Of a DNA stretch of 64,000 nt, positions 34,347 to 63,989 are shown piece after piece. The notes under the pieces are model-generated. The model searched no databases. It was not told the origin of the DNA and saw only the letters and a program-made list of their open reading frames with translations. The DNA comes from a virus, in IMG/VR virus record IMGVR_UViG_3300044684_000278, positions 1 through 64,000 of that record, one strand, 5' to 3'. How positions within the stretch are numbered: the first letter of the stretch is position 1; every line of letters starts with the position of its first letter. The translations under genes were made by a program, and so were the position numbers.

Positions 34347-36098
34347 TTACTTGATGGCATGACCACTGCGTCCTACCTTATAGGTACGCTTGCCATCAAA
34401 GACAATGACCTGGTCTCTTTGCTGGTAGAGAGGATTAAAGCCAGTGAATTTGGCTCCGGCCACACCAATAAAGAAAGCCTTGTCCGAATAGGCAGAGCAG
34501 TGATCCTCTGCATCCGTGATGACGATGGCATTGCGTTTATTGGCTTCTATTCTCTGGATCACCCTGCCGGTGGTGGTTCCACCTCCTCCACGGATATTGA
34601 GAATGTCCACGATCTGGTTACCTTCATACTTCACATGATCCTGGAAGGAATACACTTCGTTGAGCATGTTCAGCTCCTTCATCTTAAAGGCAAACGCCTT
34701 GGCAAATAAAAGCTTGGTCATATACCTTCCGTCCTGTCCTTGTACCCCGCAGGATTGCTCCATGGATCCTGAAGCATCAATGAACAGGTCGATCTTACCC
34801 ATCTTCCTGATCTCCTTCACCAGTATATCCTCTGTGAATATTTTACGCAGTACAGGATGCAGTAGTGTGATGTCCTCCAGCCCGTCAAGGGTACCAGCAT
34901 CAAAAATACTCTCAAAGTAAGGCTTGTCCTTGGCAGAGAAGTAAGAGTTGGACTGGTCCAGCAGGTTCTTGATCTTGCTCTTGATAGCATTCAGGTTAAG
35001 CCCTACACTTCTCAGTTCCTGCTCCACCTTCTCCAGGTATTGCCGGTTGGTCTTTTCTGCTGCACGGTTGGCTTCTCCCCATCGGTCAGAGGCCAGCTCC
35101 TTCCACATATCATCCATCTGCTTTTCACTCATCACAGCTCCCAGCATTTCCACGGTCTTGCGTGCATCTTCCAGCACCTCTTCCAGAATCTGCTTGGACC
35201 CTTTGACCTTGTCAAAGCGTTCCATCAGGGTCTTCAGGTGAGCATTCTCACTCTGACGGGTGTTACCCGTACCAGCCTGATTGCCTCCGCCTGTCTGGGA
35301 ATCACTGTGATCCTTTTCCTGCTCCTGCTCATCATCACCTCCTCCGCCATTGCCTTGCGGATCTTCATCATCCTCATCCTCATCCTGACCTCCCTGGGAA
35401 GGTTGATTGCCGGGATTTCCCTGCTGCCCATGATCCTGAGGATCCTGTGGTTGTGGTTGGGGGTTAGGCTGACCTTTTCCAGGACCCTTTCCACCCATTC
35501 CTTTCTGCTGCTTCTGGTCCTGGGGGTCCTTTCCCTGCAGGTTGTTCATCAGGTCATCAAATGCCTGCTTGTCCTCCTGCTGCAGCATGGCCAGGTTCAT
35601 CAGGTAATACTGTATCATGTTCCTGGTATAGACCATGGATTTGATATTGTTCTGACGGGTGATCACCTTGGCAATAGGGTTGTTGGACTTTTCAATCATA
35701 TGGTAGCGGAACTTGTTCTTCTCGGTCCGCTCCTCAAACTTGAGATCCTGGATGTCCTCATAGTTGATATTGTAAATATCATTGAGCACTTCCTTGGGAA
35801 ACTTCTGATAGATCTTCATCATCTCCTCAGTCAGTGTCTGTGGACTCACCAGCTTTTTGTTCATTTTCTCAGCCATCTGCTGTATCCGCTGGTGGGATAC
35901 AGGTGTCTGGATATAGTTATCTACTGCTTTTTGCAGTGCCCGTTCATCCAGGGAATGCAGGTAGGGCTTGATGATCTCACCCCTTACATTGTACTGCACG
36001 TTGGAGAAGAGACGGGGCCTGTTCTCAAAGCCCAGTTCCCCTCTCTTTGCCTTTTCCAGGATGGTATAAGGATTTTTGAATTGTCTCTTCTTGCTCAT
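34347..36098 (-). CDS. VWA-domain protein with Q/G/D/E-rich linker (MoxR partner 1)
   Basis: MIDAS DASGS, GGGT, ITDA. Confidence 0.85.
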   Translation of the reverse strand: MSKKRQFKNPYTILEKAKRGELGFENRPRLFSNVQYNVRGEIIKPYLHSLDERALQKAVDNYIQTPVSHQRIQQMAEKMNKKLVSPQTLTEEMMKIYQKFPKEVLNDIYNINYEDIQDLKFEERTEKNKFRYHMIEKSNNPIAKVITRQNNIKSMVYTRNMIQYYLMNLAMLQQEDKQAFDDLMNNLQGKDPQDQKQQKGMGGKGPGKGQPNPQPQPQDPQDHGQQGNPGNQPSQGGQDEDEDDEDPQGNGGGGDDEQEQEKDHSDSQTGGGNQAGTGNTRQSENAHLKTLMERFDKVKGSKQILEEVLEDARKTVEMLGAVMSEKQMDDMWKELASDRWGEANRAAEKTNRQYLEKVEQELRSVGLNLNAIKSKIKNLLDQSNSYFSAKDKPYFESIFDAGTLDGLEDITLLHPVLRKIFTEDILVKEIRKMGKIDLFIDASGSMEQSCGVQGQDGRYMTKLLFAKAFAFKMKELNMLNEVYSFQDHVKYEGNQIVDILNIRGGGGTTTGRVIQRIEANKRNAIVITDAEDHCSAYSDKAFFIGVAGAKFTGFNPLYQQRDQVIVFDGKRTYKVGRSGHAIK

Positions 36099-36107
36099 GG
36101 GTTATGA

Positions 36108-37265
36108 TTAGATGGTGGCCGCTTGCGGCTGTGTGGTAAGTACATCCTCCAGCAAGTCCTCAATCTCTTTCTCTTTCTGCTTTACAGGATGCCCTTCCAG
36201 GATATGGGCTACCACAGCTTCAACCTCTTCTACCTGGGACTGATCCAGTTTACCTGCAGAAGCATAGCCGGTAAGGAGTGCATCAATCTCTGCCACGGCC
36301 TCATCCACGCTCTGTGCATCATGCAGTGACCACAGCATGTCCGCCTTGCTCATCAGGGCTTTCATTTCCTGGTTCATTAGCTGGGCTGCCAGTTGGTTTC
36401 CGGCTTCCGCATCAATCATGATGGTGGCTACCTTCACCATGGATTTATCCAGGGTATAGTTCCACACGAAAGAGACGGCTTTGATCAGTTCAGGAACGAA
36501 AGTCAGTGTCCGGTCAGAACACCTGTTATAAGCTACGTTCAAGAACTTCTCCAGCTTAGATGTTGGAATGGTTACTCCATCCATTTCTGCCCTGGTAGGG
36601 AGACCGATCTTCATGGTCTCTTTATACTCTTTGGCACCCCGGTCATAGTAACGGATCATGTCTCCGGCTGAGATCCGGTTCACCTGCATTTTCAGCAGGA
36701 ACCTGTCCCAGAAAGGAGAGCCCGCTTCTTCTTTGGGGATCTCGTTACAGGTAGCAATAAAGAGCTTCCATTTGCAGGGGATCTTATGCTTACCATTAAA
36801 GAGGAACTTCTCGTTCATGATAGAGAGCAGTGAATTTCTAATATTACTGCTGGCCTTGTCCACCTCGTTGATGATTACGATCTCTGCCTCTGTGATAGGG
36901 GCAATGATCTCATAACGGGGTTCGGCTCCAAAGAGCTTGGCCATGTCGGGTAATCCTTTGACCTCGCTACTTTTGGTGCCTTCATCTGTTTCCAGGATGT
37001 AGATCTTTTCCATGAACTCCTGCTGTGCCTTCTTCATGGCAGCCACATCTCCTGGAGGTACGTCTTTCAATAACCAGGCTTTGGCAAAATCAATAACGGT
37101 CTTGGTCTTACCGGTTCCAGGAGGGCCTACCAGTAATACCGGCTTTTCTGTTGCTCGGGCAAGGGAGAGCATTCTGAACACTTCTTCTTTGTTGATTAGA
37201 TTGGTGTCAATAGTAAGTACGTTCTGAGCTTTATTTTTAGTAAGGGATTTGATAGCTTTTGCCAT
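36108..37265 (-). CDS. MoxR/RavA-like AAA+ ATPase 1
   Basis: GPPGTGKT, INEVDKA, ATCNE, FWDRF; start re-called at MAKAIK. Confidence 0.88.
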   Translation of the reverse strand: MAKAIKSLTKNKAQNVLTIDTNLINKEEVFRMLSLARATEKPVLLVGPPGTGKTKTVIDFAKAWLLKDVPPGDVAAMKKAQQEFMEKIYILETDEGTKSSEVKGLPDMAKLFGAEPRYEIIAPITEAEIVIINEVDKASSNIRNSLLSIMNEKFLFNGKHKIPCKWKLFIATCNEIPKEEAGSPFWDRFLLKMQVNRISAGDMIRYYDRGAKEYKETMKIGLPTRAEMDGVTIPTSKLEKFLNVAYNRCSDRTLTFVPELIKAVSFVWNYTLDKSMVKVATIMIDAEAGNQLAAQLMNQEMKALMSKADMLWSLHDAQSVDEAVAEIDALLTGYASAGKLDQSQVEEVEAVVAHILEGHPVKQKEKEIEDLLEDVLTTQPQAATI

Positions 37266-37332
37266 GATTTCTTGTAGTTGTGTTTGATCTGAATTAGTAG
37301 TGGAAACAGGGGAAGCGTCGTCCCCCTGCTGA

Positions 37333-37899
37333 TTAGAGGTTGAGGAAGCTTTGACCGGCTTCCACGTCAGAATCTTGCTGGGACTCTGATGCAACCAGGC
37401 TGTTATCACTAATGCCAGCTGATCCAGCCTGGGTACTACCCACACCTGGTTTTGAGGCTCCCAAAGGAAGTACGACTCCGTTGGATTTGTTAGCCTGGGC
37501 TGGTAGGTCAGCACCACTTCCTGAGGATTGGTTGGTCTGCCCAGCTTCTTTAGCCGCTGCTGGTACATTCCCTGTACTGACGGTTGGCTGTTGGCTATCT
37601 TTTGCAGCATCCACTGATGGAGTTGCTCCAGTTCCTGCTGCAGGTTTGTTTGCTGCTGATTCCGTATTGTTAGCATTGTCTTTGTCTTTTGTGTCATCAA
37701 TAATGCGGAAGATGACTCCTTCCGGCTCTTTACCTACAAGCTTGGGGTGCTTCATGATCACTTTGATCTGGAACTCCTTGGCATTATACTTCTCTTCAAT
37801 GCTACCGAACCCCTGGTCTTCTGCTTTCAGCCAGGTTAAACCGTTACTTAAATCCTCTAATAACTGACTCACAGTCAGATCTACTGGTTTGAATGCCAT
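37333..37899 (-). CDS. Hypothetical protein, folded N-terminus plus disordered tail
   Basis: In operon directly upstream of MoxR 1. Confidence 0.7.
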   Translation of the reverse strand: MAFKPVDLTVSQLLEDLSNGLTWLKAEDQGFGSIEEKYNAKEFQIKVIMKHPKLVGKEPEGVIFRIIDDTKDKDNANNTESAANKPAAGTGATPSVDAAKDSQQPTVSTGNVPAAAKEAGQTNQSSGSGADLPAQANKSNGVVLPLGASKPGVGSTQAGSAGISDNSLVASESQQDSDVEAGQSFLNL

Positions 37900-37919: not shown

Positions 37920-38249
37920 TTACTTTTTGTTAATTAGTTCACTAATCTGGTCACAGAGATCAGGGTTTGCATAGAGTGCCCCTGTGACCTTTCTTAAGAA
38001 ATCTTTCTGTTGTTCCTGGGTGGCAGTACGCCAGTCCAGTGATGGTCTGTACAGCTCAAAGAAGTCCTGAAACACCCATTCAGTGAGTTTCTCCTGCTTC
38101 TCGTGCTGAAATAGTCCTCTGCCGTCCTTATGTACCTGTGATTTGGTTACTGTCAGGTACGTTCCATATTTGTTATAATCTTTTCCATGTGATTCACGGA
38201 ATTGAGGTTTGAGCCTTACCCTGTCTCCGGGGTTAAATAGGTATTCCAT
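37920..38249 (-). CDS. SH3/KOW-like small protein (divergent C-terminus)
   Basis: FNPGDRVRL. Confidence 0.65.
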   Translation of the reverse strand: MEYLFNPGDRVRLKPQFRESHGKDYNKYGTYLTVTKSQVHKDGRGLFQHEKQEKLTEWVFQDFFELYRPSLDWRTATQEQQKDFLRKVTGALYANPDLCDQISELINKK

Positions 38250-38511
38250 GCTCCAGTTGCTTACTTAATTTGTCCAGTGCTTCTTCAATATCTTGTATTG
38301 AGTAGTACAACTCCAGCTCACCTACATATCCTTTCCATCCCGATTGTTCCGGGAAATCAATATAAACCTTCATCCCAAGTGTACTTATAGTTTCATCAGG
38401 AAGTAACTGCCTTATTACACCCACAGATTTTGCAGTAACACTTCCCCAATCGTGATAGGGATTGGTTGCAATAACACGGACTGTGTCTCCCACTTTAAAG
38501 TAAGTTTCCAT
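38233..38511 (-). CDS. SH3-like protein with shared tail
   Basis: FKVGDTVRV...SIQDIEEALDKLSKQL. Confidence 0.7.
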   Translation of the reverse strand: METYFKVGDTVRVIATNPYHDWGSVTAKSVGVIRQLLPDETISTLGMKVYIDFPEQSGWKGYVGELELYYSIQDIEEALDKLSKQLEHGIPI

Positions 38512-38719
38512 CTTTCATCCTTTCTTCTAACTTGGTTAGGGCATTCATTAGATCGTCTATACTAACAGCATCCACTTTTTCAAAAAAAGAAATATCAATC
38601 CAGCTCTTAGGTAAGTTTTCCTTGCACTTGAATGTTAGTTTACCTGAATTATCTGAATATGGATCTTCCCTAAATTTCTTTTGTGGTATGATCCTGTCAC
38701 CTATCTTAAAGTTTTCCAT
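38495..38719 (-). CDS. SH3-like protein with shared tail
   Basis: FKIGDRI...SIDDLMNALTKLEERM. Confidence 0.7.
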   Translation of the reverse strand: MENFKIGDRIIPQKKFREDPYSDNSGKLTFKCKENLPKSWIDISFFEKVDAVSIDDLMNALTKLEERMKDGNLL

Positions 38720-38999
38720 TTTCCATCCTTTCTATCTTCTCATCCAGGGCCTGGAACAAATCTTCTATGGATGGACCTACAAGCTCGTAGTAGCTACAGG
38801 TCCAGCTACCAGTTCTGCCTTTTGTTTTGAATAACCAGTTACCCTCGGCATTTTTACTAAGCTCAGATATAGTGACACCATTTATCAGCAGATTCTTTAC
38901 TTCAGGATTTTTAATGGTACTAAACCTTTCAAAATATGCATCAGGATTTCTCAGCCTGACTGTATCCCCTACTTTAAAAGGAGCTTCATTGTCTGTCAT
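38706..38999 (-). CDS. SH3-like protein with shared tail
   Basis: FKVGDTVRL...PSIEDLFQALDEKIERM. Confidence 0.7.
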   Translation of the reverse strand: MTDNEAPFKVGDTVRLRNPDAYFERFSTIKNPEVKNLLINGVTISELSKNAEGNWLFKTKGRTGSWTCSYYELVGPSIEDLFQALDEKIERMENGKL

Positions 39000-39300
39000 T
39001 TTCCATCCTCCTTATTTTATCGTCAAGAGCATTAAATAAATTTTCTATAGTAGGATCAGTAAGCTGATAAAACATGCAGCTAAATCCTCCATTAAATCCA
39101 TATTCAGCAGGATCAAACCTCCATCTTTCTGACCCTTTTGAATAGTAGATTTTTTTTATGGTAACTCCTTCGGTTAAGAGAGATACTTTACGTGCCTCTT
39201 TCTTGATATGAGGAAATTCATTAAAGTATTCATCCGGATTAATTAATCTGACTTTATCTCCTATGTTAAAAGGAGGCTCACCATTTGATTCTGGTTCCAT
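38986..39300 (-). CDS. SH3-like protein with shared tail
   Basis: FNIGDKVRL...PTIENLFNALDDKIRRM. Confidence 0.7.
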   Translation of the reverse strand: MEPESNGEPPFNIGDKVRLINPDEYFNEFPHIKKEARKVSLLTEGVTIKKIYYSKGSERWRFDPAEYGFNGGFSCMFYQLTDPTIENLFNALDDKIRRMENDRQ

Positions 39301-50820: not shown

Positions 50821-50852
50821 GAAAGGAGGATTAAGTTCCTCCTTTTTGTTTT
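50821..50852. terminator. Terminator between convergent genes
   Basis: AAAGGAGGA...TCCTCCTTT followed by T-run. Confidence 0.7.
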
Positions 50853-51079
50853 TGTTCCAGGGTATTCAGGGCTTCCATGATCTGGTCAATGACCGGTGTC
50901 TCACGTTTAAGAAAAGTAAAAGCTTTAACATCCCACATAGGAGATCCGTCACCAGCTTTATAACTCCCAGTATCTTCAATTACTTTGCCCCTGAAGTAGT
51001 TTCCTCTTATTTCTTGAACCCTTACCTTAGTTCCAAGTTTACCTACTACTATATCACCGGGCTTAAATGGCTCATTCAT
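50831..51079 (-). CDS. SH3-like protein with shared tail
   Basis: FKPGDIV...PVIDQIMEALNTLEQKQ. Confidence 0.7.
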   Translation of the reverse strand: MNEPFKPGDIVVGKLGTKVRVQEIRGNYFRGKVIEDTGSYKAGDGSPMWDVKAFTFLKRETPVIDQIMEALNTLEQKQKGGT

Positions 51080-52769: not shown

Positions 52770-54023
52770 TTACTTGTTTAATTGTGCATCTGTTTCCGGA
52801 GTCACATTGATATACTTCCCACCTGTACGCTCACAAAGACTTTTCAGCTCATTGTTAGGTCCGTTGTAAAGAGTGATGGCATTGGTCTTCCAGGTAAGCT
52901 TGTCTGTCTTCACGCTATCCTGGCCATCGTTGATCACCAGGATCTCCGGCTGATCTACGGACAGGTCAATGTTCAGATTGAACAGCTTGTGGTTTTCCAT
53001 GATCTCTTTACGGATCCTGTCAATGATGAGTCCCACTTCTGTGTCTCCACCACTGGGGTTATTGTTGAAGTGTTTCCAGAACTCCAGGGCAGTCTCCCGG
53101 TTATAGATATGATACCATTTAAACGTACCATGCTCCAGGTTGTTTTTGGTCAGGAAGAAGCAGAAGAAGATCTCACACTCTTCCTTGATACAGTAAGATA
53201 ACCTGTCGGCCACGATGGACATCACCCACTGTTGTTTCTGTGGGGAGTTCATGGATCCTGAAAAGTCCACCAGCATGATGATCTTCTGCTTGGACTCTTC
53301 ACTTGTTACCGGGGTGTTGACGATCAGGTCCTTGGTTACCAGTTTCTGGTTGAAGTTGGGCATCATACGCTGATACAGCTGGCTGTTTACCAGCTCACCA
53401 TATTCTGCCATCCTTTTCTGCTTATGTACCTGGGAGTTGGTCACCCTTCTCTCATGCACCACCTTCTTGATCTCAAAGCTCTTACCGAAGGCTTCCACCA
53501 TGGCAATCCGCTGCATCATATCCAGCCTTTTATCAAAGTCCTGCATGTCTGCCCGGTTGTCAAAGAGCTCATTTATAGTAGAAGACTCAAACTGCTCCTC
53601 ATCCGGCACGCCAACAAATACCTCTGTGAGGTCTTTCTCCGTCATCTTATCCGGGGAAGGCATAGCTCCGCCCTTTTGTTTCTGCTTCCGCTTCATCAGC
53701 ATGAGCAGGTTCATAGCCTTGTCCAAAGGAGAGATGCCAGGAACAAACTTGGTCCTTAAAGCCTCATAGAATCCTTCCTTGGCGTTTGCCCTTTCCAGCT
53801 CCTCCGGACTTAGCTTAGCCGGATCTTTGTATTTATCTTCCACGATGTCATAGGACATCACCATCTTGTGGTAGAAGAAACGGGCCAGCTCTTTGGCTAC
53901 ATGGGTATTCTGCAGGTCAAGACCCTTGCGGTGGAGAGTGCTCTCCACCACATAGGTCATTGGGGTCCAGTAATACTCATGTTCCCGTATGTAAAAATCT
54001 TCTTGCTTATTTCTCAATAACAT
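52770..54023 (-). CDS. VWA-domain protein (MoxR partner 2)
   Basis: VDFSGSM, GGDT, INDG. Confidence 0.85.
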   Translation of the reverse strand: MLLRNKQEDFYIREHEYYWTPMTYVVESTLHRKGLDLQNTHVAKELARFFYHKMVMSYDIVEDKYKDPAKLSPEELERANAKEGFYEALRTKFVPGISPLDKAMNLLMLMKRKQKQKGGAMPSPDKMTEKDLTEVFVGVPDEEQFESSTINELFDNRADMQDFDKRLDMMQRIAMVEAFGKSFEIKKVVHERRVTNSQVHKQKRMAEYGELVNSQLYQRMMPNFNQKLVTKDLIVNTPVTSEESKQKIIMLVDFSGSMNSPQKQQWVMSIVADRLSYCIKEECEIFFCFFLTKNNLEHGTFKWYHIYNRETALEFWKHFNNNPSGGDTEVGLIIDRIRKEIMENHKLFNLNIDLSVDQPEILVINDGQDSVKTDKLTWKTNAITLYNGPNNELKSLCERTGGKYINVTPETDAQLNK

Positions 54024-55146
54024 CTTGGATCTCCTTCAGTTTAGATTGTAAGAATTTTTCATAGCCGGATACGCGGCCACTGATCTGTTTCATCAGCTCG
54101 TCATCCACCTTCTTGGCTTTCAGAGTCTGAATATCCGCATGGATCTCTTTCAGTACCACTTTGGCACGACGAACATTGTCCAGGGAATTCAGGGTGACAC
54201 TATTGGCCTCTTTGATGTTACCATCAATCTTAGCTATCAGGTCCTCAATCACCTGTACATTTTTGTACTTGGAGATCTCAGCATCCACCAGGGATTTGTT
54301 CTTGCCAGAGAAATCTGCCATGAACTTCAGGCCACCCATATCACCACCGGTCTTCTCCAGGATACGGGCTGCTTTAATGGCAGTACGCGGAGAAACCACG
54401 GTTCCGTTCTGGGCCAGTTTCTCCATGATATAAGAAAGCTGGCTGAATGGCTTGCCGAACATTTTGTTGAACATGAAGGAATAAGTATCCTTAGTGTATG
54501 CATTCCACTCTACTTTATACTCTAAAGGAAAACGTTCCATGAGGGCCTTCAGTGAGTCGTTCTTGGTGAACTCTTCACGGGTCTTGTTAGTACAGCACAC
54601 GATGAGCTTGGTCTTGATCTCAAATACCTGTGTGCCGTTACGGAACTTGCCGGAGGTCAGGATGTCTTTTAACTGTTCCAGGATATAATCCGGAGCATCC
54701 ATCAACTCTTCAAAGATCACGTACTCAAAGTTCATGAAAGAGTTTTCTACCAGGAATTCCAGGGCACCTGTGTCATTGAACTTCTTGATGTCAATGCCAC
54801 CAAACAGGGAATCGGTAGTAGTACCGCTACCCATTGTCTTTACAAACGGCTCAATACCTTTTGATTCAAAGAAGTATTCAGTGAACTCTGATTTACCGTG
54901 ACCGCCTTTACCAAACAGGATGATATTCTCTCCGGTCAGGAGTGCCAAGTCAAGGGCCTTGTTCAGATCTTCCATGAATACGAACTTGGTAGGATCTGAT
55001 TTGGTTTTTGGAGCAGCAGCAGGAGCTTCTGCAGGAGCAGGAGTTTCTTTTCCGGTTTCAGCTTGAGCTGATTTGTTTTTTAACATGCTTGGTGCTTTGA
55101 TAGCCACACCATTGGTTTTCTTTACTGCTGTTTCAGTGGTACTCAT
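54007..55146 (-). CDS. MoxR-like AAA+ ATPase 2
   Basis: GKGGHGKS, IFEEL.DA, CCTN, ALMERF, SPR; start re-called at MSTTET. Confidence 0.88.
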   Translation of the reverse strand: MSTTETAVKKTNGVAIKAPSMLKNKSAQAETGKETPAPAEAPAAAPKTKSDPTKFVFMEDLNKALDLALLTGENIILFGKGGHGKSEFTEYFFESKGIEPFVKTMGSGTTTDSLFGGIDIKKFNDTGALEFLVENSFMNFEYVIFEELMDAPDYILEQLKDILTSGKFRNGTQVFEIKTKLIVCCTNKTREEFTKNDSLKALMERFPLEYKVEWNAYTKDTYSFMFNKMFGKPFSQLSYIMEKLAQNGTVVSPRTAIKAARILEKTGGDMGGLKFMADFSGKNKSLVDAEISKYKNVQVIEDLIAKIDGNIKEANSVTLNSLDNVRRAKVVLKEIHADIQTLKAKKVDDELMKQISGRVSGYEKFLQSKLKEIQDVIEK

Positions 55147-55180
55147 GATTTTTGTGTTGATTAAATAGTGAATTATTTTG

Positions 55181-55465
55181 TTAACTGTTTTTTGCTTGTA
55201 GCTGTAAAGCCAGCCGGTCAAGGGCTGACTCAATTAGAATAATAGTGTCGGAGAGGGGATCTTTAGCAAGTTCTCTCCAGTAGTAACGACCTTCCTGGCC
55301 GTCCTCCCAGCGGACTCCTGCACCTATATCGGAGATCCATTTTGTGATGATCCCCTTTTTACCCTCTCCTCTCTTGGTTCGGTCGTTGCTGGATTTTATA
55401 CCTTCCTCAGAGATGATAACCTTTGTTCCTACCGGACCAGTACTTTGGGTAAGGTGCTTAGACAT
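55181..55465 (-). CDS. SH3/Mib-like protein with shared tail
   Basis: VGTKV...G.I...VRWEDG...Y...IILIESALDRLALQL. Confidence 0.7.
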   Translation of the reverse strand: MSKHLTQSTGPVGTKVIISEEGIKSSNDRTKRGEGKKGIITKWISDIGAGVRWEDGQEGRYYWRELAKDPLSDTIILIESALDRLALQLQAKNS

Positions 55466-55793
55466 AGAACGGACTTAGTTTTTGCTTTTGCTTTTTCTCG
55501 TGCTTATCCAGCTCTATGAGTGTCTGGCGGATCAGCTCCGCACAGTTATCACACTTCTCCTGGAGGATCTTTTCTTCTGAAGGAACATATACCAGCTCCT
55601 TCATGTAATAGGCTTCCCGGTGACCGTTGGACCACAGCACGTAGCATGTGTTTCCACTACTACCATCAAGTGTCCCGATCATACCTTTACCATTTTTAAT
55701 ACGGTCTTCATGGGGAGGTGCGGTGGGACTTAACTCTACCTCAGCCCCCTTCTGGTAGTTTCCTTCGTTTACCTGGACTTTTTGTTTTGTCAT
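55458..55793 (-). CDS. SH3/Mib-like protein with divergent tail
   Basis: KGAEV...VLWSNG...Y..KEL...LIRQTLIELDKHEKK. Confidence 0.65.
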   Translation of the reverse strand: MTKQKVQVNEGNYQKGAEVELSPTAPPHEDRIKNGKGMIGTLDGSSGNTCYVLWSNGHREAYYMKELVYVPSEEKILQEKCDNCAELIRQTLIELDKHEKKQKQKLSPFYV

Positions 55794-57398: not shown

Positions 57399-57701
57399 TT
57401 AGTCCTCATCATAGAGGATAGTGAACAACATTTTTTCTTCTAACTTTTCCAGCCCTGCATCCAGTTCACCGAAGATGCTATCCAGGCTGGACATTGACTC
57501 ATTATTGGCCCATTCCACACGGTATCCTTTTCCCAATTTTTCATTATACTTCTTGTCCCAGTCATCTATGTGATAAGTGTACTTGGTTCCGGCAGTACCT
57601 ACTTTTCCGTAGGTTGCCACGAACTGATTTCCACTAATCTCTTCCATTTCATAGAACTTATGACTGGAACCGTCCTTAAAAACGAGTCTTGCTTTTTTCA
57701 T
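57399..57701 (-). CDS. WGR-domain protein with shared-tail-like C-terminus
   Basis: SHKFYE...YGKVG..G...EKLGKGY; SSLDSIFGELDAGLEKLEEKM. Confidence 0.8.
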   Translation of the reverse strand: MKKARLVFKDGSSHKFYEMEEISGNQFVATYGKVGTAGTKYTYHIDDWDKKYNEKLGKGYRVEWANNESMSSLDSIFGELDAGLEKLEEKMLFTILYDED

Positions 57702-57702
57702 T

Positions 57703-58191
57703 TTACTGCTTGTATATAACTACTGTGACATCACAGTACGGAGCCAGTTCCTTCTGGATGATCTCTTTGATCCGATTCCAATCCCCACCGGCAAGTCCGG
57801 CACCGATCTGTGGTAGCCCTACACGCTTTTGAAAATAGCGTGAGGCCAGCTTACGCATAACCAGGGTCAGTGCCTCATAGTCAATATCTCCCTTGGGATT
57901 GCCATAACCAAACTGGGTGTAGGCATTCACTACATCCAGGAAGGATGTCTTGGGAGAGCTTCGGGCATCCAGTACAAACCGCATGGCTTCTATCTGTCCT
58001 ATCTTATTTACGTCCCCTTTGTACTCCTTGGCTTCCATCGGATAGGTATCCGTAGCAAAGGCAGCTACCATCTGGGTAGCCAGTCCTTTTTTCTGTGTAC
58101 AGAAACAGTTGCAGCCATGGGCTATGGCATCAAAATGACCCTCCCTGGCCAGGGTTATGAGGTTTCCCTCTACTTCATTGTATGTCCCCAT
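57703..58191 (-). CDS. Macrodomain (Poa1p/TARG1-like ADP-ribose-processing) protein
   Basis: GNL, IAHGCNC, N.YTQ, LPQIGAGLAGGDW. Confidence 0.88.
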   Translation of the reverse strand: MGTYNEVEGNLITLAREGHFDAIAHGCNCFCTQKKGLATQMVAAFATDTYPMEAKEYKGDVNKIGQIEAMRFVLDARSSPKTSFLDVVNAYTQFGYGNPKGDIDYEALTLVMRKLASRYFQKRVGLPQIGAGLAGGDWNRIKEIIQKELAPYCDVTVVIYKQ

Positions 58192-58233
58192 AGTGTAAGT
58201 TGTTCCGGTTGACCTCCACCGGAAGGATTAAGG

Positions 58234-59304
58234 TTAAAATACCAGTTTGTAGGTACGAAGCTGCTTCATGATCAGCTTGTTGTGTGGCACCTGCCATGGA
58301 TCTGATGGTTTGTTCTTCAGTTCCAGTACCATAATGCCTTCTTCCGGCTGGGTGATATTGCAGTCTGCAAAGACTACCCTTGTGGTGTAATCGAAAAGCG
58401 GACTTTCCATGTCATCCCACTGCTCATCTGTCCAGCCTTTAGGTTTACTTGGGTTATGACTCCTGGAAAACATGAAGCTTTCTGCATCACCCTGGATCTC
58501 CACATATTGCTGAAGCTGAATCTTCCCGTCAATCTCTTCAAAGAGCTCATACTTCTTTTTCTCACTTTCCAGGTTCAGGTGGGATCCGCATACCAGAGCG
58601 TCCTCGTTAAAGAGATTCATTTCTTTGATGAGGTTCACCAGCAGGTCAAACGTCTGCATGTTGATCTTCTTGAAGAACTGGTAGATGGACTCTCTGTGCT
58701 CTTTGTTGACCAGCATGTCATCAATCACTTCATCCATAGTGGCCTGATCCAGGTCTATGTAATCCTTACGGTATTTCACGCGGTTCAACCGGTTCATGAG
58801 AAAATTATTAATTCTCATCTCATTCACCGTAAGCAGGAAAATGAACCGGGTTGGATAGTTACCATCCATAAGCAACAGCAGATCATTGCTCTTCTCGTTG
58901 TTGGCATACACTTTTTCAAATTCATCAATGAAGATGATAGCATCCGGGAACTGGGTGATGTAATCAATAAAGTCACTACCAAAGAATGGTTCGGTGATCA
59001 TGATTACCGGTTTGTTTGCTTCTACACAGAACTTCTGTGCAGTAATAGTTTTACCAGAACCTTTCAGACCAGAGAGGATGATACCCATGTTTTTCTCAGA
59101 ATTCTCCTGGTATGATTTCAGCCAGCGGTGTACAATAGAGTGATCTCCATAGATCTTTTTAGGAAGCTTGAATGCTTCTTTCTTTACCAGGTAGTAGCCT
59201 TCTTTCGGGCTAAACTTGAGCATGTAGTTGCCTACCGGTAATTTGTCATGAGTGGCTGTTACGCTTGCTGTCGTGAAGACACCATTTGATTCAATGATTT
59301 TCAT
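58234..59304 (-). CDS. AAA+ ATPase (classical/BCS1-like clade)
   Basis: GLKGSGKT, FIDEFEK, LL.LMDG, NR..R. Confidence 0.85.
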   Translation of the reverse strand: MKIIESNGVFTTASVTATHDKLPVGNYMLKFSPKEGYYLVKKEAFKLPKKIYGDHSIVHRWLKSYQENSEKNMGIILSGLKGSGKTITAQKFCVEANKPVIMITEPFFGSDFIDYITQFPDAIIFIDEFEKVYANNEKSNDLLLLMDGNYPTRFIFLLTVNEMRINNFLMNRLNRVKYRKDYIDLDQATMDEVIDDMLVNKEHRESIYQFFKKINMQTFDLLVNLIKEMNLFNEDALVCGSHLNLESEKKKYELFEEIDGKIQLQQYVEIQGDAESFMFSRSHNPSKPKGWTDEQWDDMESPLFDYTTRVVFADCNITQPEEGIMVLELKNKPSDPWQVPHNKLIMKQLRTYKLVF

Positions 59305-59340
59305 ATAATTATCTGTACGGATTAAGTGGGGTGACAAAGC

Positions 59341-59370
59341 AATAGCCGGTAGCGGTTACCACCGGCTATA
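59341..59370 (-). terminator. Hairpin, probable terminator
   Basis: ATAGCCGGT...ACCGGCTAT. Confidence 0.6.
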
Positions 59371-59401
59371 AATAGTTTAAATGATGGTTAGTGTTACAGG
59401 T

Positions 59402-60190
59402 TTAGAGGCTTACCTCTTTAGTCTGTTTTTTCTCTGCAGGTGCAGTGATAAAGTGAGCATACCGGGCAAAGAAATCCTTTACCTTCTGCTCATCTGTGCA
59501 TTCTGCAGCAATAGTTTGTTTCTGCTTTCCGATGTAACGGAGCATGACATTGTGGTCGTAGGCTTTGCCCAAAGATCTTACTGTGTTCACAAACTCCTGG
59601 ATGAAGTACTTTTGACAAGTCCTTCCCATCTCCGGCATGAGTTTCATCACTTCTGATGTCTGGGAAACCAATAGTTCAGCGGGGCCCTCATTCACAACGG
59701 TAAAGGTTCCGGTCTTCAGGGCTGAGTTGATACGGTGACCGAAGAAAAAGCCTGTATTGCTTAAGATACCTGCTGCTATGGTGATCTCTATATCATACTT
59801 GTTATAGATAACCATCAGCTTGCGGTAGTCCGGCTTGATACTGCTCCAGGCATGGATGTAATCATCCAGCTTCCAGGATTTGGAGCTTGAGTTTAAAAGA
59901 GCAATGGTCTTCACCAGGTCCTCATAATTACTGATGCCATGGATGGTCACGTAAGGAATATCTATACCCAGTGCCATACAAGCTTCATACTTGTGCTGAC
60001 CCTCTATGATATAGGTTTCCTTCTTTCCGGTAATAAAGCTCAGTTCTGCTACAATGATTGCCTGAAGCATTCCTATTTCAGAGATGGATTTTTTCAGCTT
60101 GGCAATGTGTGCAGGGGCTGTTTCACGGTTGATCCCAACTAACTTCTTGAAGCCCTTCTTGGAATCCTTTTTGAGAATTTGGATGTTCAT
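59402..60190 (-). CDS. ParB/Srx N-terminal domain protein
   Basis: NR....HI..L..SI...G....IIV, IIEGQHK..AC. Confidence 0.75.
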   Translation of the reverse strand: MNIQILKKDSKKGFKKLVGINRETAPAHIAKLKKSISEIGMLQAIIVAELSFITGKKETYIIEGQHKYEACMALGIDIPYVTIHGISNYEDLVKTIALLNSSSKSWKLDDYIHAWSSIKPDYRKLMVIYNKYDIEITIAAGILSNTGFFFGHRINSALKTGTFTVVNEGPAELLVSQTSEVMKLMPEMGRTCQKYFIQEFVNTVRSLGKAYDHNVMLRYIGKQKQTIAAECTDEQKVKDFFARYAHFITAPAEKKQTKEVSL

Positions 60191-60198
60191 AGTTTATA

Positions 60199-60714
60199 CT
60201 AATTGTTACTTGTTTGCTTGTCTTTAAGCATTTGGATGAGCTCCTCCTTGGATTTACTCTTCAGGCTATCTTCAGCAGCAGCCTTCTCTCCGGTTACGGT
60301 CTCTTTCAGGGAGGTTTCCTTAATCTCTTCCTTAATCTTTGTCCTTAACAGTAACATGACTTCCGAAGGGATTTGTCTGGCAGAGGAATCACGGGTCACG
60401 AAATTGCCCACGGCTCCCCCAGCTATGATAATTAATGCATCCTTTTTAGAAGGAGTAATAGCCCATAAGATCCATAGAACAGTCATCATAGTAAAACAAA
60501 ACCAGAAGGTCCTGGAGGTATACTTTCTCCAAGTACGAGCTGATGTTTTATCGTCACTGGTACTGACTGAATCCACAGAAATAATAAATGTTACCCCATA
60601 AACAATTGCGGATATGATGCTGAAAGCCAGGAACCAGTTTGAAAAAATATCAAAAGTGTGCTTGGCACTATCTGCCATGGTCAGCCACCAGAATATTTTG
60701 TACCAGTTAGTCAT
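60199..60714 (-). CDS. Multi-TM membrane protein
   Basis: Two to three hydrophobic helices. Confidence 0.7.
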   Translation of the reverse strand: MTNWYKIFWWLTMADSAKHTFDIFSNWFLAFSIISAIVYGVTFIISVDSVSTSDDKTSARTWRKYTSRTFWFCFTMMTVLWILWAITPSKKDALIIIAGGAVGNFVTRDSSARQIPSEVMLLLRTKIKEEIKETSLKETVTGEKAAAEDSLKSKSKEELIQMLKDKQTSNN

Positions 60715-60988
60715 TGGGCAGTGCCTCCTTTCTGTCTTCCTTGTTAAGGGCCTTGTGAATGGCTTCTTCCATGGCAATGCAGTACTCAGTGGCATCAATA
60801 CAGGCCAGGAACAGAGCTACTATGCCTAAATCCATGGTGAGACCAGCTATCTTGTCACAGAGTTTTTCTATGAAATGGGTAGCAGTCCAATGCCATCCGT
60901 AAATAAATTGAAACAGGATTGTTTCAGCAATGTTGAAGTAGAGGCCCCACCTGACAAGCCAGGACCCTATTTTTAGTTTTTTCTTCAT
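60707..60988 (-). CDS. Two-TM membrane protein
   Basis: Hydrophobic segments. Confidence 0.6.
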   Translation of the reverse strand: MKKKLKIGSWLVRWGLYFNIAETILFQFIYGWHWTATHFIEKLCDKIAGLTMDLGIVALFLACIDATEYCIAMEEAIHKALNKEDRKEALPND

Positions 60989-61515
60989 GATACGGTTACT
61001 TGATTAAGTTCTTTCCACCGGGCAACGACAGACCTGCCAAGGTCCGTGTCCCACAGGACTGAATAATGAATATTGTCTTTTGCAGTATCCTGGTCTTTCT
61101 TACAGCACGCTTCCCTTCCCTGTTCCGGTTTAAGTCCCAGGTCATGCAGACCACAGAGGTTATCCTCTGTAAGCATGACACATTTTCCACTTGGATTCAG
61201 TGGAGCGTACCTGCCTCCGGTATGTTCGGACTTGTATTTCTTCTCCTCACCGGTTGCCCTGGCAATCATGGAGAGCATCATACTGAACATATCTGCCAGT
61301 TCACTATCTCCAAGACCCATATCTTCCGGGTAAATAGCCATGGTCAGCACATGTATATCATGCTTACCTTCTCCAATACCATGGTAGACATCACGCTGGA
61401 TGAGTCCTGCATATCCGGCATCCAGAAGCTTTGAAAATTCTTCCGGAGTACCCCAGCAGGGACGTTTATAACACATAGCTACTCCCTTAGAGCAGCCCGT
61501 ACAGGTAACTCCCAT
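60985..61515 (-). CDS. YkgJ-like Cys-cluster protein
   Basis: CTGC...C...PC and C.ML..D.LC.LH...KP motifs. Confidence 0.6.
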   Translation of the reverse strand: MGVTCTGCSKGVAMCYKRPCWGTPEEFSKLLDAGYAGLIQRDVYHGIGEGKHDIHVLTMAIYPEDMGLGDSELADMFSMMLSMIARATGEEKKYKSEHTGGRYAPLNPSGKCVMLTEDNLCGLHDLGLKPEQGREACCKKDQDTAKDNIHYSVLWDTDLGRSVVARWKELNQVTVS

Positions 61516-61559
61516 TACATTTAATAAGTTTAACGGTAAGACTTACAAACCTGTGAGGT

Positions 61560-61820
61560 TTACTTCAGTATCACAGTGACACTGGTAGACCTCTGGTCCA
61601 ATTGTGATCGGGTTATGATACCGGCTGCTTTCAATTCCTTCAGCCAGCGTTTAATGGTTGAATGACCCGCATTCAGCTCATCAGATAGACGGTTGATACC
61701 TGGATTACAGGTGTTGGTGACGCTGTCTTTGTAACAGCATAATAGTGCATAGAGGCTTTTTGCTCCTGGAGACAAGGAAGGATCAGCCAATACTTCTTTA
61801 CTGACCTTGCCAAAACCCAT
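61560..61820 (-). CDS. Winged-helix (HTH_36-like) protein
   Basis: LSPGAK.LY..L...C.P....L...L......TI.R.L.EL...G.I. Confidence 0.8.
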   Translation of the reverse strand: MGFGKVSKEVLADPSLSPGAKSLYALLCCYKDSVTNTCNPGINRLSDELNAGHSTIKRWLKELKAAGIITRSQLDQRSTSVTVILK

Positions 61821-61844
61821 AAAAGTGTGATTAAAATGGGTGAC

Positions 61845-62471
61845 CTATTGATCACCCATGTCTGGATCTTTTCCAAAAAGTTTTCCCAGCAGCTCATTGA
61901 GGTTGCCTTTGACACCGGACTTCTTCATACCCTGAATTTCAGAATCAATCTGGTCCATTTTGTCTTTGGGGCAAACCTTTTCTATGAACTTATCCCAGGT
62001 AAAATTGCTGTCCTTGATAGCTCTGATGGCCATTTGGATAGGAGCATACCGTGTTTTGGTAAACATATCCTCAATAACCATTCTCAGCCCTCTGACGAAT
62101 TTATCCTGAGCATCCTCTTCCTTCTTGTCTCCCTCGGGCTTCTTTTCGGATTTTTTGTTCTCCATTGCCTCAAGCTCTTCATAGAGCCCCAGCACTTCTG
62201 AACGGACATCCCTGAAGATCAATAGACAATAGGTCTGCTCTTCCGGGGTTCTCAGATGAGAAAAGGCCAGGTCAAGAGTGCCTGTTGCAGTGGTCAGCTC
62301 ATCCGGAGCCTCATCCGGGCTGTCATACAGGTCTTTAACCAGCATCCTGGCGGACAATGCCTCAAACAGGATGGCATTACTCACAAAGTTTCTCTGATAG
62401 AAAGAGAGACCCAGGGAATCTTCCCAGTTCTCTGCTTTGTGGTTCAATTTGGGTAGGATTAGCTTTTGCAT
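61845..62471 (-). CDS. Hypothetical protein
   Basis: 208-aa ORF downstream of a TCTACA cluster. Confidence 0.7.
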   Translation of the reverse strand: MQKLILPKLNHKAENWEDSLGLSFYQRNFVSNAILFEALSARMLVKDLYDSPDEAPDELTTATGTLDLAFSHLRTPEEQTYCLLIFRDVRSEVLGLYEELEAMENKKSEKKPEGDKKEEDAQDKFVRGLRMVIEDMFTKTRYAPIQMAIRAIKDSNFTWDKFIEKVCPKDKMDQIDSEIQGMKKSGVKGNLNELLGKLFGKDPDMGDQ

Positions 62472-62505
62472 TTCTTTTAAAGATTGGGTAAAAATAATAA
62501 GATTC

Positions 62506-62562
62506 TGTAGAATACCAAAAAACTTCTACAGTTTAAACCTAAAAAATGTAGAGTGGTCTACA
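62506..62562. promoter_or_regulatory. Cluster of four TCTACA/TGTAGA boxes in two inverted pairs
   Basis: Boxes at 62506, 62525, 62547 and 62557. Confidence 0.55.
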
Positions 62563-62568
62563 AAATGG

Positions 62569-62904
62569 TCATTTCAGCTTTTCAGCTAATTGGTCAAGTG
62601 CTTTTTCCAGGTCTTCCATGGAAGGTGGATTCTCATAGTAGGACAGCTCATAGAGTCCTTTTTTCTCACTTATGTAGTAGCTGCAATAATCGTTGGTATC
62701 ATCCCATTTAACTAAGGCTACGTCAGTATTAATTTGTGTAAGAGTTCCTCTTGGTTTAAAACCGGTATACTTTTCTTCCCAGAGGCCACCTTTTCTTTTT
62801 CCCCAGTCAGGGCCGGGCATGACACGTAATCCGACCTTTGCGTTCAACGGGGTAATGGGTTCTCCGTGATATATTACCTTGTCACAGGATTTAGGAAAGT
62901 ACAT
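62569..62904 (-). CDS. Mib/HERC2-like protein with shared tail
   Basis: VGLRVMPGPDW...VKWD...YEL...PSMEDLEKALDQLAEKL. Confidence 0.75.
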   Translation of the reverse strand: MYFPKSCDKVIYHGEPITPLNAKVGLRVMPGPDWGKRKGGLWEEKYTGFKPRGTLTQINTDVALVKWDDTNDYCSYYISEKKGLYELSYYENPPSMEDLEKALDQLAEKLK

Positions 62905-63205
62905 ATAAACTCCTTTCAAATTTTTCTTCCAATTTATCAAGGGCTTCTGTGAATTCATCCAGGGATGGCATATCCTCAACATAATACAGGTCATAAGAAT
63001 CCTTAGCTCCTGCACGGTAATCATTATCTATACAGTTATCTTCCCATTCTACAGTGACCCAACCAATAGATCCATACCTTTCCAACTCTACCAGCTTACC
63101 TATACCGGTTTTATCACCATCCTGGTCGCCCCATTCCCAGTCTTTACCCCGTTTTACACGAGCTCCTTTTTTATAGTTTTCAACTGTTACCGGTATCTCC
63201 ATCAT
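62891..63205 (-). CDS. Mib/HERC2-domain protein with shared tail
   Basis: GARVKRGKDWEWGDQDG...V.VEW...YR.G....YDL; PSLDEFTEALDKLEEKF. Confidence 0.82.
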   Translation of the reverse strand: MMEIPVTVENYKKGARVKRGKDWEWGDQDGDKTGIGKLVELERYGSIGWVTVEWEDNCIDNDYRAGAKDSYDLYYVEDMPSLDEFTEALDKLEEKFERSLYVLS

Positions 63206-63497
63206 TCCTCCTTTTCAGCTGGGAAGCAAGCCTGTTCAGAGCAGCTTCAATATCCTTAAACTCTACTTCGGGGTAGATCAGAGGAATCTTTCCAGACTTT
63301 ATCTGGTACCCTGGCCATATCCCTTTGGCAAGCTGTGGAAATCCTTTCCATTTTACCTGGATGATTTCTGAGTACTTGTGGATCTCTACAATCCTGCCCT
63401 TTTTTACTCCCTTAAACCGGGAATCGTGAGGTCCCCAGTCAGGGCCTGGAATTACTATGTCTCCAATTTTGGCAGTATTAACGTTAACTGGTTTCAT
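63180..63497 (-). CDS. Mib/HERC2-like protein with shared tail
   Basis: IGDIVIPGPDW...VKW...EFKDIEAALNRLASQL. Confidence 0.7.
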   Translation of the reverse strand: MKPVNVNTAKIGDIVIPGPDWGPHDSRFKGVKKGRIVEIHKYSEIIQVKWKGFPQLAKGIWPGYQIKSGKIPLIYPEVEFKDIEAALNRLASQLKRRNDGDTGNS

Positions 63498-63798
63498 GAT
63501 TTATCCTTTCTTGCTTTTCAATGAGTTTCTCCACTTCCTGGAATAAGGTTGTTAAATCCTCTGTAGTTGAATCATAGACTGCCAGTTCGTATTTTCCCGC
63601 CGCTCCAATTCGGTAAGAATAGTTGAATCCTCCTGGTTTCCACCTCACATCAGCATACCATCCGGCAATGTCATCACATACTTCGGTAATAATACCATAC
63701 TGACTAACACCAACGTGATGATTCTCCGAATGATTCCAATCAGGGCCTTTGCAGACTTTCATGCCTACAAAAGCATTTTCATGCGTCACCTTTTCCAT
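63484..63798 (-). CDS. Mib/HERC2-like protein with shared tail
   Basis: VGMKVCKGPDW...VRW...YRIG..GKYEL; TTEDLTTLFQEVEKLIEK. Confidence 0.75.
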   Translation of the reverse strand: MEKVTHENAFVGMKVCKGPDWNHSENHHVGVSQYGIITEVCDDIAGWYADVRWKPGGFNYSYRIGAAGKYELAVYDSTTEDLTTLFQEVEKLIEKQERINHETS

Positions 63799-63989
63799 AG
63801 AACTTTACTCATCAGATACAGTGTTTCTATAAATATCCTGGGGATACTCAGCAGGAACTTCTTGATCTTCCTGGGAAGACGTAGCAGCCAGGCTATCAGG
63901 TTACCATGCTTTTTACCCAGCATGATGTCTGCCTGGATCTGGTCCAGTCCATCCATGATCTGCTCAATGGTCTCCTGTTTCTTCTCCAC
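63786..63989 (-). CDS. Small protein with a tail-like helix at its N-terminus
   Basis: ETIEQIMDGLDQIQ followed by a basic amphipathic segment; GTG start. Confidence 0.5.
   Translation of the reverse strand: MEKKQETIEQIMDGLDQIQADIMLGKKHGNLIAWLLRLPRKIKKFLLSIPRIFIETLYLMSKVLWKR

Follow-up and report, generated by a model that had tools for sequence, protein, structure and literature searches.

A shared C-terminal helix on small proteins with variable heads in an uncultured phage and its co-occurring sister strain

Introduction

The ankyrin-repeat/PRANC proteins of poxviruses form a multi-copy family with rapid turnover, in which a variable binding module is joined to a short constant C-terminal helical module. 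Pairs of a MoxR-type ATPase and a VWA partner are exemplified by RavA-ViaA of E. coli, by the pair needed for tail growth in Acidianus two-tailed virus and by the pairs of jumbo phages. A third kind of module that matters here is the Mib/HERC2 domain, for which peptide binding is known for eukaryotic domains only. Here, we examine positions 1-64,000 (the window, 64,000 nucleotides in all) of the virus record IMGVR_UViG_3300044684_000278, whose full length is 136,320 bp, and a family of small proteins encoded there, the variable N-terminal heads of which are followed by a shared amphipathic helix (the tail) and some of which are encoded close to two MoxR-VWA gene pairs.

Viral MoxR-vWA pairs have been proposed as virion-assembly chaperones and are treated as chaperone/co-chaperone systems (PMC7824862). 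A preliminary description of the window had claimed that about 12 proteins with dissimilar heads share one docking tail, and that this tail would connect them, in the manner of F-box adaptors, to a common hub such as the neighbouring MoxR-VWA machines or a host protease. No description of this arrangement was found in searches limited to open-access full text and bioRxiv.

Results

The C-terminal helix is shared beyond chance

The shared C-terminal helix is genuine and exceeds what is expected by chance. We built a hidden Markov model (HMM) from 13 tails and searched the 840 open reading frames (ORFs) of at least 40 amino acids (aa) in the whole 136,320-bp genome. The 13 seed tails were returned at E 2.8e-9 to 2.1e-6, and two unseeded copies were recovered as well (75465-75806, E 3.9e-5, and 79441-79743, E 0.0022), which brings the number of copies to 15; the top non-family ORF stood at E 0.78. 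Every match forms the C-terminal end of an ORF on the minus strand; as listed, these ORFs have 74-151 aa, and the longest (62569-63024, 151 aa) most likely starts at 62904 and then encodes 111 aa. An 18-row profile brings in three weaker copies beyond the 15 of the HMM, and a crude pattern search of the whole genome returned the listed copies together with three further ones beyond the window, where seven copies lie (64394, 64729, 65034, 75465, 75799, 79123 and 79441). A motif-free check, in which the C-terminal 34-mers of small ORFs were compared all-against-all, gave one cluster of eight in the phage genome, and the same comparison in two complete relatives gave no cluster larger than two.

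The family genes of the window and their array neighbours are given here from left to right, and each is named below by its lowest coordinate. The left-out E-values are those obtained when the head group of the protein was omitted from the tail model.

37920..38249, minus strand: last gene of its array, 109 aa, no tail motif and no tail HMM match; first strand FNPGDRVRL related (hhalign to the SH3a group, 69% probability across 14 columns only)
38233..38511, minus strand: tail-bearing protein, 92 aa, SH3a head group (with 38706 and 38986), tail SIQDIEEALDKL; tail HMM E 6.7e-9, left-out E 6.9e-6; head to 38706 by phmmer E 2.2e-4; no Pfam family
38495..38719, minus strand: tail-bearing protein, 74 aa, short head; tail HMM E 2.8e-9, left-out E 1.5e-6
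38706..38999, minus strand: tail-bearing protein, 97 aa, modelled head SH3-like; tail HMM E 7.4e-9, helix at residues 78-93
38986..39300, minus strand: tail-bearing paralog of 38706, 104 aa; head phmmer E 8e-15; tail HMM E 1.1e-7, left-out E 0.13; weak SH3_15 match under the cut-off
50831..51079, minus strand: solitary tail-bearing protein, 82 aa (ATG) or 88 aa (GTG at 51097); tail HMM E 1.6e-8, left-out E 4.9e-5; head without link to the other classes
55181..55465, minus strand: Mib/HERC2-like head and tail, 94 aa, directly upstream of MoxR2; tail HMM E 2.1e-6, left-out E 0.27
55458..55793, minus strand: Mib/HERC2-like head (joins the class at iteration 1) and a longer, divergent C-terminal helix, 111 aa
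57399..57701, minus strand: WGR-domain protein, 100 aa, with a C-terminal acidic helix; Pfam WGR (PF05406) E 7.1e-7
62569..62904, minus strand: Mib/HERC2-like head and tail, 111 aa; left-out E 3.8e-5; head swapped in the sister strain
62891..63205, minus strand: Mib/HERC2 protein with tail, 104 aa; MIB_HERC2 E 3.7e-17; middle of the head swapped in the sister strain
63180..63497, minus strand: Mib/HERC2-like head and tail, 105 aa; head to 62569 by phmmer E 1.9e-6; tail HMM E 1.7e-6, left-out E 0.47
63484..63798, minus strand: Mib/HERC2 protein, 104 aa, with the divergent tail DLTTLFQEVEKLIEKQ; MIB_HERC2 E 9.8e-11
63786..64000, minus strand: 3' part of a 204-aa gene that continues to 64400 beyond the window; MIB_HERC2 E 3e-4, sub-threshold; Mib-like class

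Within the arrays, adjacent genes share 14-17 bases where one stops and the next starts, which suggests co-expression. The gene at 63786-64400 has a layout of its own, with a Mib-like head, a linker of about 55 residues, an internal tail-like stretch and a basic/hydrophobic C-terminal end. The tail-like stretch (TIEQIMDGLDQIQ) was spotted by eye only and reaches E 3.9 with the tail HMM; this protein could be an anchored or an ancestral form of the family.

We then rebuilt the tail model for the 13 tails without each head group in turn. Eight of the 13 were regained at E 1.5e-6 to 8.2e-5 (38233, 38495, 50831, 62569, 62891, 65034, 75799 and 79123) and 38706 at E 0.0029, the best non-family ORFs lying at E 0.38-1.8; the tails of 38986, 55181, 63180 and the WGR protein 57399 (E 0.57) were not significant. 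Because the left-out models still detect most tails, the tail joins head classes that have no detectable sequence similarity to one another. The claim that one tail is common to about 12 dissimilar proteins is partly confirmed. For the copy said to lie on an unrelated WGR fold, the left-out value leaves this claim statistically unsupported, and membership of 57399 in the tail family is doubtful. Its WGR domain scores 29.7 bits against a cut-off of 22, and its relatives are limited to the sister strain. The two copies that had been called weak, 55458 and 63484, are weak by the tail HMM too (E 3 and 1.4); in the 18-row profile, 63484 scores 1.7e-11 by construction.

In the last 40 residues of the 18-row alignment, the final barrel strand is followed by a linker of 2-5 residues, usually with a Pro, and then by an amphipathic helix of 16-18 residues, in which hydrophobic residues are spaced 3-4-3-4 (I..L...L..L...L) and acidic and basic positions are conserved. 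Across 14 tails, Ala8 and Leu9 are present in all, Leu12 in 12, Asp/Asn10 in 13 and Lys/Arg/Gln15 in 14, and position 5 is I, L or F throughout (14/14). Positions 2, 5, 9, 12 and 16 are I, L, M or F in 13, 14, 14, 12 and 13 of the 14 tails, respectively, a heptad pattern of about 2.3 heptads. The mean pairwise identity of the tails is 0.39, compared to 0.105 for shuffled tails. Searched against Pfam, the tail was matched in one of 18 members, which is the chance level, and against the PDB there was no match below E 0.015, the closest segments (E >= 0.015) being coiled coils.

The heads differ in sequence and probably less so in fold

With about 18 members, the family accounts for roughly a tenth of the gene content of the 136-kb phage; its products have 74-114 aa. 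After removal of the tails, phmmer placed the heads in a Mib-like group and in the groups 38706/38986/38233, 64394/64729, 79123/79441 and 75465/75799, with 38495, 50831, 65034 and the WGR protein as singletons. Head-only iterative profiles gave a Mib-like class of nine (62891, 63484, 62569, 63180, 63786, 55181, 55458 and 79441, with 79123 at E 0.01) and no links among the remaining classes, and hhalign between head groups found little similarity past the first strand, FKxGDxVR. In total, at least six head classes have no detectable mutual sequence similarity. Global alignment gave a pairwise head identity of 0.317, a value that free end gaps inflate and that was set aside. The isoelectric points (pI) of the heads spread from 4.4 to 9.8.

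The Pfam family MIB_HERC2 (PF06701, gathering score 33.5 bits) is passed by 62891-63205 (62.4 bits) and 63484-63798 (41.8 bits), with sub-threshold matches in 62569-62904 (13.9 bits) and 63786-64400 (21.1 bits) and zero in the other family members. Mib/HERC2 in two members and WGR in one are the only Pfam families found, the remaining members having none, and PHROGs held no family for the four small proteins tried.

An AlphaFold2 model of 38706, built from a 7-row alignment (mean predicted local distance difference test score, pLDDT, 79.9), predicts a small, SH3-like beta-barrel into which two helices are inserted. The barrel blocks have a pLDDT of 84-91, and the helix at residues 78-93 one of 59-70 (tail blocks 70/66/59). 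A Foldseek search of the PDB with this model gave no match at E <= 1e-3; its top list consists of SH3, HERC2 (9l8y), Mind bomb (4tse/4xi6), Tudor, KOW and chromo folds, with template modelling (TM) scores of 0.31-0.48. The chromo-barrel and PWWP alignments span 92-98 columns of the 97-residue model at E > 0.2. Hence, the dissimilarity of the heads noted in the preliminary description applies to their sequences, with at least six classes, and less to their folds, which are probably not very different, since the list for 38706 is one of SH3-like barrels. We take the family to be a set of variants of a single small-barrel architecture, in which the WGR protein is a doubtful outlier.

Directly upstream of the WGR gene 57399 lies a gene for a macrodomain protein (57703-58191, minus strand), which matches PDB 5e3b at E 5.7e-6 and the Appr-1-p processing domain of 5m31 at E 0.0024. 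Macrodomain and WGR are both familiar in PARP-type ADP-ribose biology, and this pair may hint at a role in ADP-ribosylation conflicts.

Heads are exchanged between co-occurring strains and tails are kept

The sister strain is a 136,148-bp contig from the same sample, which aligns well on both flanks of the array around 62569. Most proteins of the two phages are 97-100% identical, and several family members are divergent alleles. Within this array, two heads have been exchanged, and both tails kept, between the two co-occurring strains. The sister replaces 62604-62921 (316 bases) by 317 unalignable bases and 62965-63119 (153 bases) by 156 unalignable bases, and has 470 additional bases at 62547-62571; the sole aligning islands inside the swapped stretch, 62571-62604 (34 bases) and 62921-62965 (45 bases), are two tail-coding stretches. 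Its substitute for 62569 has a different Mib-like head and the same tail, and its allele of 62891 is 56-57% identical with the tail kept. The combination of variable heads with a constant tail, as originally proposed, is thus seen twice, in the tail common to at least six head classes and in the tail islands that stay alignable where the sister replaces two heads. Since the sister counterpart of 38495 has 97 aa, the 74-aa protein of this phage carries a 23-aa head deletion.

In both divergent sister allele pairs, the tails change more slowly than the heads. For 62891, the ratio of the non-synonymous (dN) to the synonymous (dS) rate is 0.21 in the tail vs 0.47 in the head; for 75799, dN is 0.21 in the tail vs 0.41 in the head. 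The tails of divergent alleles have a dS of 0.74-1.09 and a dN of 0.16-0.21. Identical residues in different tails are encoded by the same codon in 268 of 670 pairs (0.40), and since this is close to the 0.378 expected from codon usage, the constraint lies at the protein level: selection acts on the tail protein and not on its DNA.

Outside the tail family, the AAA ATPase at 58234-59337 (minus strand, phrog_2376) is 68% identical to its sister counterpart, with neighbours at 99-100%, and is a further swapped cassette.

The family is confined to this phage and its sister

We looked for the family in 25 related whole records, a set that includes the sister and in which 11 are at least 90% complete. 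The 18-row profile gave 17 matches in the sister strain and none taken as real in the 24 non-sister records; a lone match at E 0.083, inside a 2185-aa frame of one relative, was taken as chance. PF06701 is present in one of the 25 records. Among 1.84 billion representative proteins, the profile had 18 matches at E <= 1e-3, 14 of them small proteins that all belong to this phage or its sister, and four long repeat proteins. Outside relatives of the 62891 head are few and all are without the tail. Over the 6232 ORFs of 82 loci, the tail HMM found family matches in the sister strain only, the next-ranked matches being an internal motif of the glycosylase. A search of genome contigs with the 62891 protein gave 84 pattern matches and no relatives, and homologous-protein searches with 38986 and with the WGR protein each returned the query itself only. 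In summary, no member of the family was found outside this phage and its sister strain.

The MoxR-VWA pairs and the position of the arrays

Two gene pairs of the window, all four genes of which lie on the minus strand, had been described as MoxR-VWA machines:

36108..37700, minus strand: MoxR-type AAA+ ATPase 1 (MoxR1); bpMoxR E 2.4e-25 (89.3 bits), AAA_5 E 7.8e-13 (49.1 bits)
34347..36098, minus strand: ViaA-like VWA partner of MoxR1 (VWA1), 583 aa, aligned to E. coli ViaA by hhalign
54007..55233, minus strand: MoxR-type AAA+ ATPase 2 (MoxR2), lineage-specific; bpMoxR E 6.5e-16 (58.5 bits), AAA_5 31.9 bits
52770..54023, minus strand: candidate VWA partner of MoxR2 (VWA2), lineage-specific; DxSGSM, GGDT and NDGQD against the pair-1 family

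Neither partner matches a Pfam VWA family, and the pair-1 partner has no PDB sequence match. In its family, the DxSGSM, GGT and TDxED motifs are invariant, and hhalign aligns the family to E. coli ViaA over the VWA region (probability 80.7%, E 1.3e-5), DxSGSM, GGT and ITD being in register; two of 34 homologs match the VWA-like DUF2201 at E 0.059. Against this pair-1 family, the pair-2 partner aligns weakly (E 0.003, probability 10%), and against ViaA by DxSGSM alone. Both ATPases are of the MoxR type, as described, and both partners are putative VWA proteins, that of pair 1 being ViaA-like. The pair-1 partner has 583 aa against about 500 in most relatives, and its surplus, at residues ~190-290, is by eye a low-complexity stretch rich in Gly, Gln, Pro, Asp and Glu. 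A motif-like stretch at the N-terminal end of MoxR2 (FVFMEDLNKALD), which lies ahead of the P-loop (residues 103 onward), reached E 2.7 with the tail HMM and was taken as chance.

MoxR1 relatives in viral contigs number at least 97, and deposited phage genomes contain no close one. A homolog of the partner protein adjoins MoxR1 in all of the 80 loci kept for neighbourhood counts. An ORF of 188 aa (37333-37899, minus strand) overlaps the long MoxR1 ORF by 368 bases, and its first ~70 residues recur in a conserved, separate ORF of 104-150 aa directly upstream of MoxR1 (78 ORF matches). The first 150 aa of the long MoxR1 ORF have blastp matches only in the sister strain, so the true start of MoxR1 is probably downstream of the listed TTG. 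As the small upstream gene is conserved, the conserved unit is a trio of this small protein, MoxR1 and the ViaA-like partner. In relatives, a uracil-DNA glycosylase gene adjoins the MoxR1 module, and hence the array of five small genes at 37920-39300 has been inserted between two neighbours.

Pair 2 is missing from the 24 relatives. Close relatives of MoxR2 were found in the sister strain and in one 8-kb fragment only, and a further pair-2-like module, at 33% identity, lies on a 22.8-kb contig; there is no tail gene within the 8 kb and 17 kb examined on these two fragments. A search of metagenome contigs with the pair-2 partner alignment gave 585 pattern matches and no relatives. On the 8-kb fragment, the genes upstream of MoxR (L083 1-186, plus strand) are unrelated to the tail family, and a 402-aa AAA-like protein is encoded after the partner gene.

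The arrays do lie beside the MoxR genes as the preliminary description had it, and this placement is not unusual: when the seven clusters were slotted at random, at least two fell within two genes upstream of a MoxR in 11% of trials (P = 0.11), and five of the seven, with 14 of the 20 genes counted, have no MoxR nearby. The expected co-occurrence of tail and MoxR/VWA does not hold for pair 1, which is found in 24/24 records and 80/80 loci with the tail in the sister only. Because pair 1 is widespread without the tail family, the independence of the two distributions, which the preliminary description had named as a refuting outcome, refutes MoxR1/VWA1 as the hub, and a functional tie of the tail family to this pair is unsupported.

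Genomic setting

The virus record has direct terminal repeats and is rated 100% complete. All genes discussed above for the tail family and the MoxR pairs lie on the minus strand in a long non-structural block that also encodes a uracil-DNA glycosylase (by sequence motifs), a helicase, a ParB-like protein, a glucosaminidase and a family A DNA polymerase. The closest cultured relatives of the polymerase are those of a Leptolyngbya phage (49.8% identity) and of crAss-like phages (about 38-40%). The public runs that carry the sequence are all soil or rhizosphere metagenome contigs, with no RNA run among them. A promoter and terminator scan of 50000-64000 yielded nothing usable, promoter-like sites being rarer than in shuffles, and the use of Shine-Dalgarno sites as a clue to the host (17/155 genes vs 10 in a shuffled control) was dropped.

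Elsewhere in the window, two giant ORFs (6-9926 and 9923-14557, plus strand; 3306 and 1544 aa) match no Pfam family at E <= 1e-5; together with the crAss-like relatives of the polymerase, they are reminiscent of the giant virion proteins of crAss-like phages. A tyrosine integrase gene with Phage_int_SAM_5 and Arm-DNA-bind_5 (49704-50819, plus strand) lies on the opposite strand within the minus-strand block of this terminal-repeat phage. The genes 51389-51919 and 51931-52470 (plus strand) are tandem paralogs of 176 and 179 aa, which both begin with MCNCN and have similar C-terminal ends. The sole tRNA of the window is a tRNA-Ser with anticodon TGA (56971-57042, minus strand).

Discussion

The reading that we tentatively favour, at slightly under even odds, is that of a private, fast-diversifying family of about 18 genes for variable small-barrel binders, whose coiled-coil-like helix would associate with itself or with that of other members. 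Nine of the heads are Mib/HERC2-like by sequence and one other group is SH3-like by its model, the rest being unclassified. Tandem duplication and the replacement of cassettes in accessory slots of the leftward non-structural block have enlarged the family, whose heads turn over fast and whose helix is maintained by purifying selection on the protein. The helix would serve protein-protein interaction throughout the family and would most probably form a short coiled coil, by which members bind copies of themselves or one another; multivalent binders would result, in which the variable heads may recognise different host or phage targets. The 3-4 hydrophobic spacing, the acidic and basic flanks and the presence of the same helix on heads of pI 4.4-9.8 point to a shared interaction surface, as a helix that packs against heads so different in charge should change along with them. 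A coiled coil would also fit the heptad-like spacing and the frequent occurrence of Glu at positions 6 and 13 and of Lys at position 15. There is no demonstrable functional link of the family to the adjacent MoxR-VWA pairs.

Several points weigh against this reading. About 2.3 heptads are short for a stable stand-alone coiled coil, the conserved polar positions would equally suit a single external partner, and the short linker and the near-full-length Foldseek alignments would permit a helix packed on its own barrel. For the heads, 38706 is the single non-Mib head modelled, with no Foldseek match at E <= 1e-3, and the ESM Atlas neighbours of 75799 and 64394 (eL21 and DUF4314) score below 0.9 and are leads only. 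For the selection on the tail, three near-identical allele pairs have too few changes to compare, and the last 27 codons of 63180 show seven non-synonymous changes vs one synonymous change. The tail profile is short and derives from one genome, so diverged tails elsewhere could escape it. Finally, the tail family has its lineage specificity in common with MoxR2 and the MoxR2 partner, so that a link to pair 2 is conceivable, if unsupported.

It is possible, although we consider it unlikely, that the constant helix docks on one common phage or host protein other than MoxR1/VWA1, such as a chaperone, a protease or a polymerase, to which the heads deliver targets in the manner of F-box or PRANC adaptors. 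The stronger constraint on the tail than on the heads, its conserved polar positions and the retention of tails by co-occurring strains that swap heads would all fit such a docking site, as would a helix that may be too short for a strong coiled coil alone. However, no candidate hub was found, the tail has neither a Pfam family (one of 18 members, by chance) nor a solved structure below E 0.015, and the restriction of the family to a single lineage makes a co-occurrence test impossible.

Somewhat more doubtful is an intramolecular helix that packs over its own barrel in the style of chromo-barrel or PWWP domains and is conserved because it holds the hydrophobic core. The short linker of 2-5 residues speaks for it, as do the alignments with the chromo-barrels of MSL3, MRG15 and MRG701 and with a PWWP domain, which cover 92-98 of 97 residues, but these have E > 0.2 and a root-mean-square deviation of 8-11 Å. 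Moreover, the helix is the lowest-pLDDT part of the 38706 model, other Mib/HERC2 relatives are complete without it, the Pfam domain stops ahead of it, and the same helix occurs on heads that differ in charge and sequence.

We give still less credit to an adaptor family of the F-box/PRANC type, in which the 17-residue helix would plug some eighteen SH3-like and Mib-like heads into one hub, either MoxR2-VWA2 or a host machine. If this were true, a single engine for remodelling or degradation would be directed at many different targets, with heads swapped between co-occurring strains as the targets change.

The docking of the heads onto the neighbouring phage MoxR-VWA machines, as the preliminary description envisaged, is improbable. 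Two of the seven clusters do lie at most two genes upstream of a MoxR, MoxR2 and its partner share the lineage specificity of the family, and viral MoxR-VWA pairs are known chaperone/co-chaperone systems (PMC7824862). Against this, pair 1 occurs in 80/80 loci, accompanied by a conserved small upstream gene (78 ORF matches), and the tail in 0/24 records and 0/80 non-sister loci, the array upstream of MoxR1 has been inserted between genes that adjoin each other in relatives, adjacency to a MoxR does not stand out against random slotting (P = 0.11, with most clusters distant), and the two other contigs with a pair-2-like module are free of tail genes over the 8 kb and 17 kb covered. Scarcely credible is conservation of the nucleic acid itself, DNA or RNA (as a recombination site, for translational coupling or as a 3' regulatory element, with the peptide motif as a by-product), for although tail islands of 24-58 bases are the sole alignable DNA in the swapped cassettes and neighbouring stop and start codons overlap, synonymous codons vary freely at the frequency expected from codon usage, dS far exceeds dN in the tails of divergent alleles, and the solitary copies 50831 and 65034 retain the motif without a following family gene.

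If the helix is a common connector, the phage would own a kit of interchangeable small binders, the heads of which are exchanged between strains of one soil sample, a visible signature of an arms race in an uncultured phage. In practical terms, the proposed MoxR/VWA link comes out negative, and a testable set of proteins of about 100 aa is gained.

Among known systems, the MoxR-VWA pairs are matched by the neighbouring genes, which are of the same kind (bpMoxR/AAA_5 with a ViaA-like MIDAS region). Pair 1 differs in being a core module of its clade that occurs without the tail family, and no tail-bearing adaptor family is described with such pairs in the available part of the source (PMC7824862). 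Chromo-barrel and other Royal family domains have the same order of elements, an SH3-like barrel followed by a C-terminal helix, and the Foldseek alignments span both; these matches are not significant, and the helix is integral there, whereas heads related to those of the phage exist without it. The tandem arrays, the overlapping genes and the allele replacement between co-occurring strains resemble 'genomic accordions' and polymorphic cassette systems; the phage family, in which no toxin/immunity function is indicated, exchanges the N-terminal head and keeps the C-terminal part constant. With the poxvirus PRANC/F-box proteins, it shares a variable binder joined to a constant C-terminal helical module, the multi-copy state and a large genome; there, Skp1 is the known hub, whereas the phage module is a single helix of ~17 residues on small-barrel heads in one lineage. 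The likeness to Mib/HERC2 (PF06701), the domain of the eukaryotic E3 ligases Mind bomb and HERC2, rests on two members that pass the cut-off and seven that join by profile, and the further head group of 38706 lists HERC2 and Mind bomb structures among its nearest folds. In the phage, there is no ligase or other domain, and the Mib/HERC2 domain stands alone in proteins of roughly 100 aa with a C-terminal helix added. Such domains are known mainly from eukaryotic ubiquitin ligases, and about nine stand-alone copies in one phage family are unusual.

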